Below are positions 2,450 through 13,429 of a stretch of 39,569 bases of DNA, one piece after another (within the stretch, counting starts at the first letter, position 1; each line of letters starts with the position of its first letter). The stretch lies in assembly GCA_937942105.1 (NCBI GenBank), contig CALDFS010000022.1:1-39569 (forward strand), in the 5' to 3' direction. The DNA is from an uncultured Ruminococcus sp. (lineage in GTDB: Bacteria; Bacillota; Clostridia; Oscillospirales; Ruminococcaceae). Below the pieces are notes generated by a model that did no database searches, was not told where the DNA came from, and saw nothing but the letters and a program-made list of their open reading frames with translations. A program made the position numbers and the translations under genes.

Positions 2450-3277
2450 TTGAAGATTGGTGCAATCGGTTATAATCATACACATGATGCGGATTATTAT
2501 CAGGATCGTCCGCAGGGAACAGGTTGTTGGCTTTTTCTGCACATTAGAACACCTTCCATATTCAGGCTCGGCGGCAAGGAATACCGTGTTAAAAAGGGAA
2601 GTGCGGTTTTGATTTCTCCGTATACTTCATGCTACTATCGGGGTACAGACGGCGGCTATGCTGATGACTGGATATTTATTAATATGACCGACGAAGAGCT
2701 TGATGGTCTTTTAGCTATGGGAATAGTTGCTGATAAGCCGGTGTATTTGGGCGTATCGCACGATATTTCTTCAATTGTACACAGAATAACCTTTGAACAT
2801 TTTTCCGCAGAACCATTCCATAGCGAAATAGAAAATAAGTATTTGGATGTTCTGTTTCTAAAGTTTGCACGTGTATTTTGCATTGATTATTCAGGAAATT
2901 TAGATATGGTCAATGAAAAAAATTCAGCAATGGTTGATTTAAGAGCTTCGATATACAGCGACCCCACTGCCTTTGACAGTGTGAAATCTATAGCCGAAAA
3001 TATGCATATGAGCTGTTCGGGTCTTCAGCACCTATATAAAAGGCTGTTTGGCGTAAACATATCGTCAGATATAATTAATTCAAGGCTTGCCCGTGCAAAG
3101 GATCTGCTGTCTTCAACCGGTCTGACTGTTGATAGGGTGGCAGAGCGCTGCGGATATTCCTGCACCTACAGCTTTCTGCGTCAGTTCAAGGAAAAATGCG
3201 GTTGCACGCCAACACAGTTCAGAAATAAGGCCTTGCCTGACTCGGAGCAGTGGAGCAGAATTAACAAGATTAAGTAG
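2450..3277 (+). CDS. AraC family transcriptional regulator
   Basis: TTG start 7 nt after AGGAGA. N-terminal cupin-like sensor domain and a C-terminal double HTH (SIAENMHMSCSGLQHLYKRLFG...VAERCGYSCTYSFLRQFKEKCGCTPTQFR). Confidence 0.85.
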   Translation: MKIGAIGYNHTHDADYYQDRPQGTGCWLFLHIRTPSIFRLGGKEYRVKKGSAVLISPYTSCYYRGTDGGYADDWIFINMTDEELDGLLAMGIVADKPVYLGVSHDISSIVHRITFEHFSAEPFHSEIENKYLDVLFLKFARVFCIDYSGNLDMVNEKNSAMVDLRASIYSDPTAFDSVKSIAENMHMSCSGLQHLYKRLFGVNISSDIINSRLARAKDLLSSTGLTVDRVAERCGYSCTYSFLRQFKEKCGCTPTQFRNKALPDSEQWSRINKIK

Positions 3278-3318
3278 TACCTTTCGTTTTGGAACATGAT
3301 TTTTTGAAGGAACAGATT

Positions 3319-4878
3319 ATGAATAAGCTGACAATTACTATTGCTGCCGTTATATGTGCAGCTGTGATGCTTGCATCATGCGCGGAAAAGATCGACTATA
3401 ACGCCGGTGAGCTTGTGCTGCCGAGCTTAAGTGAGGAAGAGATTATGAACAGTATTGACCTTGGCTTGGAAATAAGCAGAAAGAATATGGTTAAAAGCCT
3501 TAAACCGTCGGGGGATTCAAACCCGATATCACCTAACGTCTTCTGTGCCGACCCTACAGTTGTTGAATACAACGGCAGGCTGTATGTCTATGGCACAAAC
3601 GATCATCAGCAGTATGAGGAGGTCGGCAGCGACGGTAAAAACAGCTATGAAAAGATAAAATCGCTGGTAGTATTTTCAACCGACGATATGGTAAACTGGG
3701 TGTATCACGGAAGGATTGAGGTCGGCGAAATAGCTCCGTGGATATATACGTCGTGGGCACCGTCAATAACCGCCCGCGTGGAGGAAGACGGTTTAACCCA
3801 CTTCTACCTCTATTTCTCCAACAGCGGCTCAGGAGTTGGCGTGATAACCTCTACGGATCCTGTTTCCGGATGGACCGATCCGCTTGGCAAGCCGCTGATA
3901 TCAAGCGCAACCGAGGGTCTTGGCGACTGCCCGAATCCCTTTGACCCCGGAGTGTGCATTGACGACAACGGCATCGGCTGGCTTTCATTCGGCGCCGGAA
4001 TAGCTGCCGACGGAAGCGAGTATATGACCAAAGCCACAAGAATAGTAAGACTTGGCAGCGATATGATATCTTTGGACAGTGAAATAGCTCAGATCCCAAC
4101 ATACTATGCCTTTGAAGCAAGCGAGCTTAACTATATAAACGGCGAGTATGTTTATACATACAATACAAGCTGGGCGGAACGCACAGAATGGGAAGAAGAA
4201 ACCGATCCTCCCGCTGCCTGCTCGATGGCTTATATGACAACAACAACCCCGCTCGACCCGCAAAGCTGGGAGTATAGGGGACATTACTTTCTGAATCCGG
4301 GTGAAAGCGGAATGGATTATTCCAACAACCACACCCACATTCATAAGTATAAGGGTCAGTGGTATATTATTTATCACTCGCTTGTCTTGCAGGAAAGATC
4401 AGAAACGCGCGGCGGATTCAGAAGTATGCAGATAGATACTCTTGACGTGAACGAGAAAAAGACGAAGATAGCCCTTCGCGGAGGCACGCGGGAGGGCGTA
4501 GATGGTATTAAAAACCTGAATCCCTTTGTTGCTCACAGCGGAACCGAGATGTACAACGCTGCTGGAATATGGTATGAATATGCTGATAACGGCAGCCTTT
4601 GCTCTGCAGCCGTAAGTGAAAATGCTTGGATATGTCTTAAAAACGTTGATTTCAGCGATTCTGCAAAGCGGTTTCTTGCTAAAGTCAAGGGCAGGGGAAG
4701 GCTTCAGGTCTGCATCGACTCCAATAAAGCCGGTGAAATAATAGCAGCAGCTGAGTTTGACAGCTCTGAATTTGGTGTTATAGCAGCTGATATCTCGCGG
4801 GACGTATCAGGAATTCATGACGTTTATATTCAGTTTTCCGATACCGGCATGATATTGGAAAGCTGGCAGGTTGAATAA
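3319..4878 (+). CDS. glycoside hydrolase family 43 lipoprotein (arabinofuranosidase/xylosidase-like) with C-terminal CBM6-like module
   Basis: ATG at 3319 follows GAAGGA (the ORF track begins at an upstream TTG). Lipobox MLASC/AE. GH43-like N-terminal blade (FCADPTVVEYNGRLYVYGTND, WAPS). The C-terminal ~130 aa resemble a CBM6-type beta-sandwich (HDVYIQFSD...WQVE). Confidence 0.85.
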   Translation: MNKLTITIAAVICAAVMLASCAEKIDYNAGELVLPSLSEEEIMNSIDLGLEISRKNMVKSLKPSGDSNPISPNVFCADPTVVEYNGRLYVYGTNDHQQYEEVGSDGKNSYEKIKSLVVFSTDDMVNWVYHGRIEVGEIAPWIYTSWAPSITARVEEDGLTHFYLYFSNSGSGVGVITSTDPVSGWTDPLGKPLISSATEGLGDCPNPFDPGVCIDDNGIGWLSFGAGIAADGSEYMTKATRIVRLGSDMISLDSEIAQIPTYYAFEASELNYINGEYVYTYNTSWAERTEWEEETDPPAACSMAYMTTTTPLDPQSWEYRGHYFLNPGESGMDYSNNHTHIHKYKGQWYIIYHSLVLQERSETRGGFRSMQIDTLDVNEKKTKIALRGGTREGVDGIKNLNPFVAHSGTEMYNAAGIWYEYADNGSLCSAAVSENAWICLKNVDFSDSAKRFLAKVKGRGRLQVCIDSNKAGEIIAAAEFDSSEFGVIAADISRDVSGIHDVYIQFSDTGMILESWQVE

Positions 4879-4941: not shown

Positions 4942-5351
4942 TTATACTCCGCTTGTTCTTTTAACCTTAAGCCTGTTGAGCGCCCTCGAAAGATTACCCC
5001 TTGCGAGCCGCAATTCCAGAACGCTTCGCTTCTGCAAAAGCTCTTCCTTGGCTTCCTCTGCCTCGCGGAGCGCTCTGTTGGCATCAATCTCCTCCGGTCT
5101 TTCGGCGGAATCTACCAAGACAAGCACCTCGTTGTTTTCGACCTTTAAAAGTCCCTCGGAAACAGCGGCGTATTGGTTTTCTTCGCCGGGAATCCTGAAG
5201 CTAAGCTTTCCGGGTACTATCGCAGAAATGATATTAGAATGATTCGCCAGGATTCCGAAAAGCCCATTAGTAGTTGGAACGTTCAGCGATTCGCATGGTC
5301 CTTCATAAAAAACGTGATCCGCAGCAAGGATTCGTATATTGAATTGCTTCA

Positions 5352-5352
<1 letters not shown>
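4942..5352 (-). CDS. atpC: F1 ATP synthase subunit epsilon
   Basis: 136 aa, with an N-terminal beta-sandwich (ILAADHVFYEGPCESLNVPTTNGLFGILANH) and a C-terminal helical hairpin. It is the last gene of the atp operon and overlaps the atpD stop. Confidence 0.9.
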
Positions 5353-7665
<2,313 letters not shown>

Positions 7666-7693
7666 GCACCATCGCCTCCCGAAAAGAAAAGTG

Positions 7694-9388
7694 TCAGTTA
7701 TTCATAAAAATATCGAGATATTTTTTTGAGCAGTCAATTATCCTTGCTTTGTATTCATCTCCAAGCCTGCCGGTCTTCTCAATGTCCTCACAGATGTCAG
7801 AAATTTCATTCGAGCAGAAATCAAGAAGTCCAAGTGAAAACTCATGTATGCGCTTTGCAGGAACATCCTGCATGATATGCGCCATCGCGGTCACAAGCAG
7901 TATGACTTGCTCATATTGTTTATATGGATGATACTGATCCTGCTTCAAAAGAGCCATAAGCCCTTCGCCGTATGAAAGCTGGCGCTTTGTCGCGTCGTCA
8001 AGATCGCTCGAAAACTGGGTGAATACCTCCATTTCGCGGAACTGTGCAAGCTCAAGGCGAATAGCACCGGCAGCCGTTTTCATGGCTTTGGTCTGAGCGT
8101 CACCGCCCACGCGTGATACCGAAAGACCTATGTTCACCGCAGGTCGCTGACCTGCAAAGAACAGATCGCTTTCAAGGAATATCTGACCGTCGGTAATAGA
8201 AATTATATTTGTCGGGATATATGCCGAAACGTCGCCTGCCTGTGTTTCAACTATGGGCAGGGCGGTCATGCTTCCGCCGCCAAGCCGCTCGCACAGATGA
8301 GCGGAACGCTCCAAAAGCCTTGAATGAAGATAGAATACGTCGCCGGGATACGCTTCACGCCCCGGAGAGCGTTCCAAAAGCAGGCTTAACGCCCTGTATG
8401 CAACGGCGTGCTTTGACAGATCGTCATACACTATAAGCACGTCCGAACCGTTTTCCATAAAGTATTCGCCTATTGCACATCCTACATAGGGCGCAATGTA
8501 TTGCATAGGCGCAGGCTCACTTGCAGTTGCGCTGACAACCACGGAGTAGTCCATGGCACCGCTTTTCCTAAGCGTTTCAACAAGCTGAGCGACAGATGAA
8601 GCCTTTTGTCCTATTGCAACATATATGCAGATTACATTTTTGTTTTTCTGATTAAGAATAGCGTCAAGCGCGATTGCTGTTTTGCCGGTCTGCCTGTCGC
8701 CTATAATAAGCTCTCTCTGCCCTCTGCCTATCGGGAACATTGAATCTATAGTAAGAATACCTGTTTCAAGCGGCTTGTTTACCGGCTGACGGTCAATTAT
8801 GCCGGGGGCAGGGGATTCTATCTGACGGTATCCGCTTTCGGCAATTTTTCCTTTGCCGTCTATAGGATTTCCCAAAGCGTCAACAACCCTGCCTATAAAG
8901 CCATCGCCGACGGGAACGCCTGCGGTTTTTCCGGTGCACTTTACCGGGCTTCCTTCACATATCTCGGAATCGTCGCCAAATACAACGCATCCAACCTCGT
9001 TGCGTCTGAGCTCCTGAACCATTCCTCTGATTCCGCCGGAAAATATAACAATTTCACCGTATGCGGCTCCGTCAAGCCCGGAAACGTTCACAATACCGTC
9101 GCCGACTGAAAGAACCGTTCCGTCGCTGATTCCGCCATCATTCGGATTCCATTCATCGACCGCCTTTCGCATAAGCGGGATGATATCGCCCTCGGCAGCA
9201 GGGATATCTCTTAAAACATTTTTAAGCTCGTTCAAACGTTCATCAATAATATTATTGTCAGGCTTTTCGGGATTCCAATTATCCACAGTATACGACATCT
9301 GTGAAACAATATCTCCGTCTTTAACAGGCTGAGCCGACATATTTTCCTTAAGTCTGCGCAGCATTTCCTTCATATCAAGATTGTCCAT
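7694..9388 (-). CDS. atpA: F1 ATP synthase subunit alpha with ~70-aa N-terminal extension
   Basis: Walker A GDRQTGKT and full alpha similarity from [17 protein letters not shown] onward. The ORF is open upstream to a TTG at 9409. I prefer the ATG at 9388, which lies 8 nt after AAAGGATGG. The canonical core begins about 68 residues later than in textbook alpha subunits. Confidence 0.93.
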
Positions 9389-9420
9389 ACAAATCGCCAT
9401 CCTTTTCAAAAAGCCAGCGG

Positions 9421-9858
9421 TCAGCTCTTTGTCTGCAAAACCTTTTCAGCCATCTGCGCCGCAAGCTCAATGATTTCCTGCTTGGATTCCTCCAAGACCT
9501 TTTCTTTCTGACGCTGTGCAGCGGCTTTAGCGTCGGAAATGATTTTTTCCTTCTGCTTTTCGGCGTCTTTTAGCCTTGCTTCAGCTGTCAACTGTGCCTG
9601 CTCAAAAGCTTTAGCCTTGATGTCAGCGGCTTCCTTTTCTGCGTCTTCAAGACGCTTTTCGTATTCAAGTTTTAATGCTTCGGCCTCGTTAAGCTTTGAT
9701 TTAGCGTCCTCAGCCTGCTTGGCAATGTCCTCAGCCCGCTTATCCATAAAGCTTTTAACAGGCTTGTAGAGCAGAAGATATAATCCCAAAGAAAGAACAG
9801 CGAAGTTAAACAGATGCAAAAGTATCTGCTGCCAGTCTATATTCAATGGTAGATTCAT
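9421..9858 (-). CDS. atpF: Fo ATP synthase subunit b
   Basis: 145 aa with one N-terminal TM helix ([20 protein letters not shown]) followed by a long charged coiled coil rich in A/E/K. It lies between atpE and atpA. Confidence 0.85.
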
Positions 9859-9921
9859 GCTAAGTGTCCATTCCTTTCATACAATCTTATTATTTGTGAT
9901 GTTATTAAGCCGAAAGCCTTG

Positions 9922-10287
9922 TTACAGCACAAAGATAATAAGAATTGCAACGATAAGGGCGTAGATAATAGCTGTTTCAATGAATACAAGTCCAAGCATA
10001 AGGCTTGTCCTCAATGCACCCTGAGCTTCCGGCTGTCTTGATATACCGTCATTTGTTTTGGAGATTGTTATTCCCATGCTTATTGCGCCAGCTGCTGCGG
10101 CAAGGCCTACGCACATAGCGGCGGCAATGGCCTTGGACGAAGTTGAACCGTCATTTTTCTGCTCCTCGGCTGCGGCTGATACATTGGCATCATCAGAGCT
10201 GTTTGCGGCGAATATTGGCACCGATATGGCAATAACCAGGACAATAGCGAACAATATCGCAAAAATTCTTTTAGTGAGTGTTTTCAT
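9922..10287 (-). CDS. atpE: Fo ATP synthase subunit c with N-terminal signal-like extension
   Basis: The C-terminal 65 aa form a c-subunit hairpin (loop GISRQPE; carboxylate in LVFIETAIIYALIV). The N-terminal ~57 aa are an extra hydrophobic segment plus a hydrophilic linker. An AGGAA RBS precedes the ATG at 10287. Confidence 0.85.
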   Translation of the reverse strand: MKTLTKRIFAILFAIVLVIAISVPIFAANSSDDANVSAAAEEQKNDGSTSSKAIAAAMCVGLAAAAGAISMGITISKTNDGISRQPEAQGALRTSLMLGLVFIETAIIYALIVAILIIFVL

Positions 10288-10310
10288 AATTGACCATTCC
10301 TTTCTTTTTG

Positions 10311-11153
10311 TCAGGCAGAAGCTGATTCGGATATTTTGTTTTTTATCTTTTTCGGATGAGGCTCGCTGACCTCTCCGTAAAACAGTGCGGTAAGCATTAT
10401 CAGAACATATGTCTGAATAAGCGCGTGAAGCAGGGTGAACAGAACTCCCACCGCTATCGGAAGTACAAAGCTCAGCCCAAGGTAGTAATATACTAGTTCT
10501 GTTACCAGCAGCCCCGAAAGCAGAGCGCCGAAAAGTCTGAAGCTCATGGATATCGGAAGCGAAAAGTCTTTAAGGGTATTTCCTGCGCCGCGCAGACCGT
10601 TTGAAGCTATTCCGCCCGAAAGTATAATCAGGTAGGAAAGAGCGCCCATTGCAATGGCGCCGTTTATATCGGAAAGGGGAGCAGGCATTGCAATTGAACG
10701 CCCTTCGGTTGTGACTGCCTGAATGCCGATAAGCTCAAACACCGTTCCGACAAAGATATATGTTCCCGCGCTGAATATATATGCACTCAGAAATTTGTTT
10801 CTGTGAGGGCTGTTTGACTTTGCAATGCCATCAAATAGCCCCACCAATGATTCAAGCGCAAGCTGAAATTTTCCGGGAACCGTCTTAAATCTTGGTATTG
10901 CAAAAATCCTTATAGCTGCCGCTGATATAAGAAGTATCGCCGTAACCGTGAAGGCTGATACCACTGCCGGGTTAACGTTCATGATTCCGAAAAGGCTTAC
11001 TTTGTTGGATTCATGCAAAACCGCGTCCTTCATGACCTCCTTGATGGACTCCTTCTCGCCGGAACCCGGACCTATCAGAATCGCCGAGACCAGCAGAGCA
11101 ATAATAACTGCTGCCCATATTATGATTACGACTGTGCGTTTTTTGCTTTTCAT
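10311..11153 (-). CDS. atpB: Fo ATP synthase subunit a
   Basis: 280-aa polytopic protein with the essential Arg motif SFRLFGALLSG. GGAAAGGAG RBS. First gene of the operon. Confidence 0.85.
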   Translation of the reverse strand: MKSKKRTVVIIIWAAVIIALLVSAILIGPGSGEKESIKEVMKDAVLHESNKVSLFGIMNVNPAVVSAFTVTAILLISAAAIRIFAIPRFKTVPGKFQLALESLVGLFDGIAKSNSPHRNKFLSAYIFSAGTYIFVGTVFELIGIQAVTTEGRSIAMPAPLSDINGAIAMGALSYLIILSGGIASNGLRGAGNTLKDFSLPISMSFRLFGALLSGLLVTELVYYYLGLSFVLPIAVGVLFTLLHALIQTYVLIMLTALFYGEVSEPHPKKIKNKISESASA

Positions 11154-11260: not shown

Positions 11261-11288
11261 ATTATAACCCTTTCTCTAAAAAAATCAA
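11261..11288 (-). promoter_or_regulatory. sigma-A type promoter candidate for the atp operon
   Basis: On the minus strand: TTGATT (11288-11283), a 16-nt spacer, then TATAAT (11266-11261). It sits about 110 nt upstream of atpB. The leader contains the hairpin at 11218-11244. Confidence 0.55.
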
Positions 11289-13024: not shown

Positions 13025-13429
13025 TCAGTGATGACAGTTTCCGCCGCAGCCGTGCTTGTCTTCGCCGCAGGAGCTGCCGCAGCTATGTTCATGCGAGTGA
13101 TGATTGCAGGAAACATTTGGATTGTAGTCAAGCTTGCCCGAAAGCAAAGCCTTTACAGCATCATCTGCGCCGCCTGATATGCCGCCGTAAAGATCAATTC
13201 CTGCCTGACTAAGCGCATTCTGCGCTCCTGCGCCAATTCCTCCGCATATAACTGCGTCAACATTGAGTCCCACTAAAAATCCCGCCAGAGCGCCGTGACC
13301 GCTTCCGACAGAGCTTACAATTTGAGAGTCTTTTATATTTCCGCCCTCAACATCATAGACCTTAAACTGCTCGGTGTGACCGAAATGCTGAAAAATATTT
13401 CCGTTTTCATAGGTTACTGCTATTCTCAT
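13025..13429 (-). CDS. NifB/NifX-family (dinitrogenase FeMo-cofactor biosynthesis-like) protein with Cys/His-rich tail
   Basis: MRIAVTYENGNIFQHFGHTEQFKVYDV...VICGGIGAGAQNAL matches the NifX/NifB C-terminal-type fold family. The tail is SCNHHSHEHSCGSSCGEDKHGCGGNCHH. Confidence 0.8.
   Translation of the reverse strand: MRIAVTYENGNIFQHFGHTEQFKVYDVEGGNIKDSQIVSSVGSGHGALAGFLVGLNVDAVICGGIGAGAQNALSQAGIDLYGGISGGADDAVKALLSGKLDYNPNVSCNHHSHEHSCGSSCGEDKHGCGGNCHH

Follow-up and report, generated by a model that had tools for sequence, protein, structure and literature searches.

The 39,569-nucleotide (nt) stretch of contig CALDFS010000022.1 (GCA_937942105.1) from an uncultured Ruminococcus sp., hereafter the window, carries an F1Fo ATP synthase operon in which the gene for subunit delta (atpH) is missing. 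Seven adjoining open reading frames (ORFs), all on the minus strand at positions 4942–11153, follow one another in the order a-c-b-alpha-gamma-beta-epsilon. An initial annotation, made from the sequence alone, had named these seven genes and reported that neither delta nor b' nor atpI lies in or next to the operon. Both statements hold: Pfam and NCBIfam assign each gene, at the position given for it, to the expected family, while searches for the delta family (OSCP) returned nothing and no ORF for b' or atpI was found in or beside the operon.

On the Fo side, atpB (10311–11153; PF00119, 61.6 bits) encodes a subunit a of 280 amino acids (aa) with the conserved Arg of the RLFG motif at residue 206, atpE (9922–10287) a 121-aa subunit c with PF00137 at residues 54–117 and the ion-binding Glu (IETA), and atpF (9421–9858; PF00430, 78.9 bits) a 145-aa stalk subunit b with a shortened C-terminus. 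On the F1 side, atpA (7694–9388 or 7694–9409, depending on the start codon) encodes an alpha subunit that consists of an 89-residue N-terminal extension followed by the canonical core with its Walker A motif GDRQTGKT. The 305-aa gamma subunit (atpG, 6748–7665) has a 15-residue charged tail, and its TIGR01146 match ends at residue 289; the 467-aa beta subunit (atpD, 5352–6755) has an intact Walker A motif (GGAGVGKT) and DELSDED motif; and the 136-aa epsilon subunit (atpC, 4942–5352) has both of its domains (PF02823 and PF00401). The families ATP-synt_A (a), ATP-synt_C (c), ATP-synt_B (b), ATP-synt_ab_N/ab/ab_C (alpha), ATP-synt (gamma) and ATP-synt_DE_N/DE (epsilon) all exceed their Pfam gathering scores. 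The NCBIfam equivalog models likewise score above cut-off for alpha (TIGR00962, 735 versus 484 bits), beta (TIGR01039, 795 versus 463), gamma (TIGR01146, 253 versus 194) and epsilon (TIGR01216, 96 versus 67), with TIGR00962 aligning residues 75–564 of the longer, 571-aa form of alpha to profile positions 6–497. For alpha, beta, gamma, epsilon and the Fo subunits a, c and b, the operon is thus of the F-type (F1Fo). The delta/OSCP subunit (PF00213), which links b to the alpha N-termini, was not found within the window. It is regarded as universal among F-type ATP synthases and as essential for their coupling, and also as the element that limits the enzyme to a single peripheral stalk and a single proton-conducting a subunit.

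The intergenic gaps measure 23 nt (a-c), 63 nt (c-b) and 11 nt (b-alpha). As first described, the b stop codon (9421–9423) and the alpha ORF lie 11 to 32 nt apart, with alpha starting either at TTG 9409 (571 aa) or at ATG 9388 (564 aa; the start used in public gene calls), which leaves no room for a gene between them. The identical operon is found on independent human-gut contigs (JGI, ENA and Logan assemblies), and the 564-aa alpha sits in a 71-member cluster and occurs on more than 200 contigs. The layout is therefore real and not an assembly artefact. A frameshift or assembly error concealing delta was considered as well and could be ruled out by the short b-alpha spacer together with the identical independent assemblies.

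We searched for delta at several levels. None of the seven operon proteins matched OSCP (PF00213) at E≤0.01, and the 89-residue alpha extension searched alone gave no OSCP match at E≤10. A six-frame search of the whole window, using E. coli delta, the delta part of the alpha fragment P0043 (described below) and a hidden Markov model (HMM) of the fused delta C-terminal domains of relatives as queries, yielded nothing below E=1. The trace of delta that we did find is a remnant of about 12 residues of its last helix, present in two copies inside the alpha extension. The possibility that the extension is itself a degenerate delta C-terminal domain was rejected, as both the HMM of the relatives' C-domains and the Pfam OSCP model miss it, while its two repeats match each other strongly. 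We infer that delta is absent from the rest of the genome as well.

To place the operon among its relatives, we used a comparative scan of one genome per species, seeded on the alpha N-terminal region. The scan returned 599 pattern-matching stretches. Relatives of the query are encoded by 520 of them, and the 80 best loci were retained. All of these best 80 of 520 share the order a-c-b-alpha-gamma-beta-epsilon, with b abutting or overlapping alpha and without a separate delta gene; their labels include Oscillospiraceae, Ruminococcus, Christensenellales, Lachnospiraceae, Anaeromassilibacillus, Hominicoprocola and others. They differ in the number of residues ahead of the alpha core, which is about 27 in a canonical enzyme. 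In 68 loci this number rises to about 101–158, corresponding to a fused delta C-domain, and in 11 loci without a delta C-domain it amounts to 47–96. This second group comprises the window, L001, L002, L003–L006, L008, L011, L033 and L047, where L001 is likewise labelled 'uncultured Ruminococcus sp.' (MGYG-HGUT-01649) and is 80% identical to the window over the extension. In a neighbour-joining (NJ) tree built from the alpha core, one clade unites nine of these 11 loci, and L011 and L033 are placed elsewhere. The sequence comparisons put the window in a more derived set, the 11 loci from which the globular delta domain has also gone. A 564-aa alpha at least 90% identical to that of the window also occurs on a 115-kb contig, on which another protein bears the locus tag CUS_4079, a prefix that probably denotes Ruminococcus albus 8.

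The alpha extension indicates how delta may have disappeared. Alpha of the window retains the canonical N-terminal helix, preceded by about 65–70 additional residues in the 571-aa form. A search with the first 189 residues of alpha retrieved alpha fragments carrying precomputed PF02874 and PF00213 annotations, some of them named 'F0F1 ATP synthase subunit delta', and in their sequences the delta C-terminal domain runs directly into alpha. In a Pfam scan of six relatives (L043, L012, L015, L053, L019 and L009), OSCP positions of roughly 100–172 out of 172 were matched directly upstream of the alpha beta-barrel; the same scan gave no OSCP signal in alpha of the window, L001, L002, L003 or L004. 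The 317-aa fragment P0043 contains a near-complete delta (OSCP positions 26–166 of 172) fused to alpha and appears to be an intermediate, and P0045 covers OSCP positions 82–172. Together with the other classes, these two fragments form a graded series from a full delta-alpha fusion, via a delta that lacks its N-terminal domain (deltaΔN-alpha), to an alpha without the delta C-domain.

Across all classes, the alignment shows a conserved module ahead of the core, consisting of the last helix of delta, (E/G)(R/K)L.QLK..L, a short linker, and the alpha N-terminal helix, GD(I/V)IPLM..AV..W.P. This helix-linker-helix module of about 42 residues lines up colinearly with the C-terminus of E. coli delta followed by the N-terminus of E. 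coli alpha, and the 11 alphas with a short extension start just ahead of the last delta helix. Taken together, the alignments show that the alpha extension originated in a fusion of the delta and alpha genes.

In the window and in L001, the module is present twice in tandem. Repeat 1 (residues 1–46; 9251–9388, minus strand) is a copy of the delta last-helix remnant plus the alpha N-helix, and repeat 2 (residues 47–89; 9122–9250, minus strand) couples the delta last-helix remnant to the canonical N-terminal helix of alpha. Repeat 2 aligns colinearly with the junction between delta-C and alpha-N in OSCP-fused relatives, as well as with the corresponding E. coli termini. Smith-Waterman alignment of the two repeats scored 70, compared to 21.5±4.2 for shuffled sequences (0 of 2000 shuffles reached 70; z ≈ 11), and the same test in L001 gave 91 versus 22±4.6. 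As the copies are identical at only 14 of 39 aa (36%) and 57 of 117 nt (49%), the duplication is old; both copies are kept in four other 564-aa variants of the same ≥90% cluster. An AlphaFold2 (AF2) monomer prediction of alpha residues 1–182, based on a 13-sequence alignment, placed helices at residues 46–60 and 69–79.

An exhaustive phmmer search with the 89-residue extension against 1.84 billion representatives gave five matches, a count from which no prevalence can be read because clustering at 50% identity masks N-terminal variants. Two of them are fragments of the same lineage, two are spurious (a TPR protein and a low-complexity protein), and the fifth is P0176, a 139-aa alpha fragment. 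P0176 shows a similar tandem duplication, with repeats that resemble single-module, Lachnospiraceae-labelled sequences. If the duplication does recur there, this would point to an advantage of having two modules after loss of the delta C-domain.

The shortening of subunit b parallels the changes in alpha. NCBIfam b profiles match the window b only up to positions 139 of 159, 129 of 147 and 142 of 164, that is, they fall about 18–22 positions short, and its alignment stops where the E. coli b 'DEAANSDIVDKLVAEL' and the 'AYDxFL' helix of relatives would start. In an alignment of b from 79 loci and E. coli, a C-terminal helix of the form (A/S/R)(Y/F)(D/E)xF(L/V) is kept in all 68 loci with a fused delta C-domain (counting L027, whose 'RYDSFL' was a miss of the regular expression) and in none of the 11 loci without it, where b ends just ahead of the helix. 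This association gives a Fisher's exact p of ~1e-12 if shared ancestry is ignored. On average, b has 150 aa in loci without a delta C-domain and 165 aa in fused loci. In the alignment, the helix corresponds to E. coli b 'DEAANSDIVDKLVAEL', with which the delta-binding domain of b ends (PMC6131620).

Strong purifying selection acts on all seven genes. When the window is compared with L001, at a synonymous divergence (dS) of 0.58–1.03, the ratio of non-synonymous to synonymous substitution rates (dN/dS) is 0.07 for a, 0.12 for c, 0.06 for b, 0.016 for gamma, 0.029 for beta and 0.010 for epsilon, whereas alpha reaches 0.08 as a whole, 0.05 in its core and 0.26 in its extension. The Walker A motifs, the beta DELSDED motif, the Arg of subunit a and the Glu of subunit c are all intact. 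Low dN/dS values and intact motifs argue for a selected, working gene set rather than a decaying paralogue.

The initial annotation had also pointed to an extra charged tail on gamma, which is real: a charged tail of 15 residues extends beyond the canonical C-terminus (6751–6795, minus strand). A basic tail past the usual ...SGA(K/R)AQ end is found across the whole clade lacking the delta N-domain, with 4–13 residues in loci with a fused delta C-domain and about 15–16 residues, first basic and then acidic, in loci without it. The canonical gamma C-terminus normally stops beneath the crown, at the place of the delta N-domain. We speculate that the tail may protrude through the vacated top of the F1 head.

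Based on these comparisons, we propose that delta was lost in two steps. In a broad group of anaerobic Clostridia, the gene for delta was fused to the 5' end of atpA and delta's N-terminal domain disappeared, so that every alpha came to bear its own delta C-terminal domain, the one that binds b. In the sub-lineage of the window, the globular delta C-domain then disappeared, leaving only the last helix of delta and the alpha N-helix, and at that stage b shed the C-terminal helix with which it usually docks into delta. Afterwards, the remaining module of ~42 residues was duplicated in tandem in the window lineage. The sequences show the gene content, the fusion ancestry, the loss of first the N- and then the C-domain of delta, the accompanying truncation of b, the duplication and the sustained selection; the mode of stalk attachment and the number of stalks are deduced from them. 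In the resulting enzyme, the b2 coiled coil would be held on F1 by direct helix-helix packing onto the alpha N-terminal modules, extending the contact between the alpha N-helix and b that is found in canonical enzymes, and the duplication would enlarge the helical platform, compensating for the lost globular domain. We consider it probable, taking these points jointly, that the operon encodes a functional F-type ATP synthase/ATPase of human-gut Ruminococcus, that delta was lost in these two steps, and that b2 attaches directly to the alpha modules; for the stalk, direct b-alpha attachment is the most likely arrangement. With nothing on the three-fold axis of the head to break its symmetry, all alphas offer an equivalent site, and the three equivalent sites could accommodate two or three stalks, each with its own a subunit. 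We regard this multiplicity of stalks and a subunits as possible but doubtful.

The initial annotation had left two options, an atpH encoded elsewhere or a differently attached peripheral stalk with the alpha extension as the candidate anchor. The second is favoured because of the fusion descent of the extension, the matched loss in b and the purifying selection. Beyond what had been noted at first, our comparison adds the fusion origin, the tandem duplication, and the fact that the delta-less order is common to 80 loci rather than peculiar to one genome.

Several points weigh against direct attachment following a two-step loss. The contrast between 0 of 11 and 68 of 68 loci counts loci and not events, and by the NJ tree the delta C-domain may have disappeared in only about three independent events. 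The extreme C-terminus of E. coli b is required for F1 binding, and a b that ends before it would have to use a different interface. Substitution is faster in the extension than in the core (0.26 versus 0.05), so that its constraint is moderate, and AF2 predicts it with low confidence, with a predicted local distance difference test (pLDDT) score of ~30–50 over residues 1–44 and the second helix of repeat 1 unpredicted. These last observations would also fit an extension that is a mere leftover linker, with the stalk anchored by a non-homologous subunit encoded outside the operon or by b contacts with other F1 surfaces. We consider this unlikely, given that all 11 loci lacking the delta C-domain conserve the module sequence and every fused relative has an equivalent of it, that the module was duplicated and retained in the window lineage (with the similar duplication in P0176), and that no extra conserved ORF lies in or beside the operon in any of the 11 loci.

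Furthermore, the DNA examined is a single 39.6-kb contig, and atpH could therefore sit elsewhere in the genome. A stand-alone delta assembling in trans would keep the architecture canonical, and the alpha N-terminal helix, the binding site of the delta N-domain, is indeed conserved. Such a delta would meet a b without the helix that binds its C-domain; the removal of the b-delta interface from both partners is the strongest argument against a canonical delta in trans. In addition, none of the 80 related loci has an atpH of its own in the operon, and in 68 of them the delta C-domain comes in cis as part of alpha, which speaks for a transfer of delta function into alpha in this clade; no OSCP-like sequence appeared in the six frames of the window either. 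We therefore regard an atpH in trans as very unlikely. The same restriction to one contig bears on the suggestion that the operon is an auxiliary or decaying paralogue, with a V/A-type ATPase or a second, complete F-type operon in the rest of the genome carrying the load, and many gut Clostridia do carry V/A-type ATPases. This suggestion is highly improbable in view of the dN/dS of 0.01–0.12 in all seven genes at dS values of 0.58–1.03, the intact ORFs and catalytic motifs, and an architecture that recurs unchanged across hundreds of independent contigs and several variants from the ≥90% cluster. Moreover, the changes in alpha and b are coordinated, unlike random decay.

Direct attachment after a two-step loss can be compared with several known systems, the closest of which is engineered. 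Ueno et al. 2025 (PMC12229609) deleted the delta N-domain of the Bacillus PS3 enzyme and attached the delta C-domain to alpha. The resulting enzyme was active and held b2 in the canonical manner, with as many as three stalks and a subunits, and its H+/ATP ratio increased from 3.0 to 5.8. The authors argued that the delta N-domain restricts the enzyme to one stalk by filling the three-fold axis, and remarked on natural fusions in Acidaminococcus fermentans and two other UniProt entries. In our set, residues 17–564 of the natural fusion at L043 form one colinear stretch with chain I of PDB 9JC1, the structure of their construct, annotated as a delta-alpha fusion. Like this deltaΔN-alpha FoF1, the window has neither a delta N-domain nor an atpH in the operon and places a stalk-binding element on every alpha, and its extension is homologous to the delta-C/alpha-N junction of such fusions. 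Unlike it, the window lacks the globular delta C-domain (a four-stranded sheet with helices) that binds b2, its b lacks the matching C-terminal helix, and of delta only the last helix is kept, in two copies. Our sequence comparison thus identifies the window enzyme as a more reduced variant of the recently recognised delta-alpha-fusion class, with no OSCP fold, a truncated b and a duplicated alpha module. In the literature searched, we found nothing on a delta-less or delta-alpha-fused Clostridial enzyme beyond the remark by Ueno et al., and no description of the variant without the delta C-domain.

Compared to canonical F1Fo enzymes (atpIBEFHAGDC; E. coli, Bacillus PS3 6N2Y), the window keeps the subunits in canonical order with intact motifs but lacks delta and atpI, and its alpha N-terminus is 60–70 residues longer, its b C-terminus about 15–20 residues shorter and its gamma C-terminus 15 residues longer. 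N-ATPases (Dibrova et al. 2010, PMC2881411) are also encoded by F-type operons without atpH (atpDCQRBEFAG), with AtpQ and AtpR and with part of delta on a long b, whereas the window has the canonical order and a short, 145-aa b. This identity was rejected on gene order and on the NCBIfam alt_F1F0 models, all of which stay below cut-off in the window (599 versus 750, 580 versus 752 and 49 versus 225 bits). The Chloroflexus F1Fo (PMC12002316), with two stalks, two a subunits and one alpha N-helix packing directly on b, is a natural F-type enzyme in which an altered delta N-domain changes the number of stalks; its delta is complete, separate and dimerises, while the window has none. The mycobacterial b-delta fusion (NF009961) is similar in that delta has merged with a neighbouring stator subunit, but there the partner is b instead of alpha and delta is retained in full; the window b scores 24 bits against a cut-off of 328, and this identity was rejected. 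Mycoplasma type 2/3 F1-like ATPases were rejected as well, with scores of 317 versus 520 and 434 versus 570 for MSC_0618/0619/0622-type models and with Fo genes present in the window.

Other features of the operon and its surroundings deserve mention. A candidate promoter (TTGATT-16-TATAAT; 11261–11288, minus strand), predicted by a consensus scan alone with 10 of 12 matches, lies ~110 nt upstream of atpB. Subunit a has ~60 residues, including one hydrophobic helix, ahead of its Pfam A-chain domain, which starts at residue 71. Subunit c (9922–10287, minus strand) begins with ~50 residues containing a signal-peptide-like hydrophobic segment, MKTLTKRIFAILFAIVLVIAISVPIFA, and an acidic low-complexity stretch separates this segment from the Pfam c domain. 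A typical subunit c has 70–90 aa, and the c ORFs in all 80 related loci are likewise long (most 105–172 aa). In loci labelled Oscillibacter or Hominicoprocola, a second PF00137 gene, likewise extended at its N-terminus by a long segment, is located ~240 nt upstream of atpB (L025, 4299–4808; L063, 4196–4795; L044, 4411–4782; also L026, L030, L035 and L058) and may represent a second c paralogue of the same operon. Outside the operon of the window, a 529-aa ORF with a lipoprotein-like N-terminus (3289–4878, plus strand) is convergent with atpC and adjoins an AraC-type regulator (2450–3277); no Pfam match is recorded for this ORF in public gene calls. A further ORF (13025–13429, minus strand) encodes a 134-aa protein of the Nitro_FeMo-Co family (PF02579) with a Cys/His-rich C-terminal tail (…CNHHSHEHSCGSSCGEDKHGCGGNCHH).

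In conclusion, the 11 loci represent a conserved, selected operon that is without the whole OSCP fold and in which b is co-adapted, and their 68 sister loci show the intermediate state that was lately engineered and in which H+/ATP about doubled. The most far-reaching reading, in which an enzyme with no OSCP domain carries two or three b2 stalks with their a subunits on repeated alpha modules, and thereby a raised ion/ATP ratio that adapts a gut fermenter to very low ion-motive force, is tentative. Should several stalks be present, the enzyme would be a natural end-point of the design engineered by Ueno et al., and if the CUS_ prefix is indeed that of Ruminococcus albus 8, it exists in a cultured strain. 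If the proposed architecture is true, it would define the minimal stator attachment for F-type enzymes, offer a natural test of how the bioenergetic gear ratio depends on the number of stalks and a subunits, and be relevant to energy conservation by abundant gut fermenters when the ion-motive force is low.

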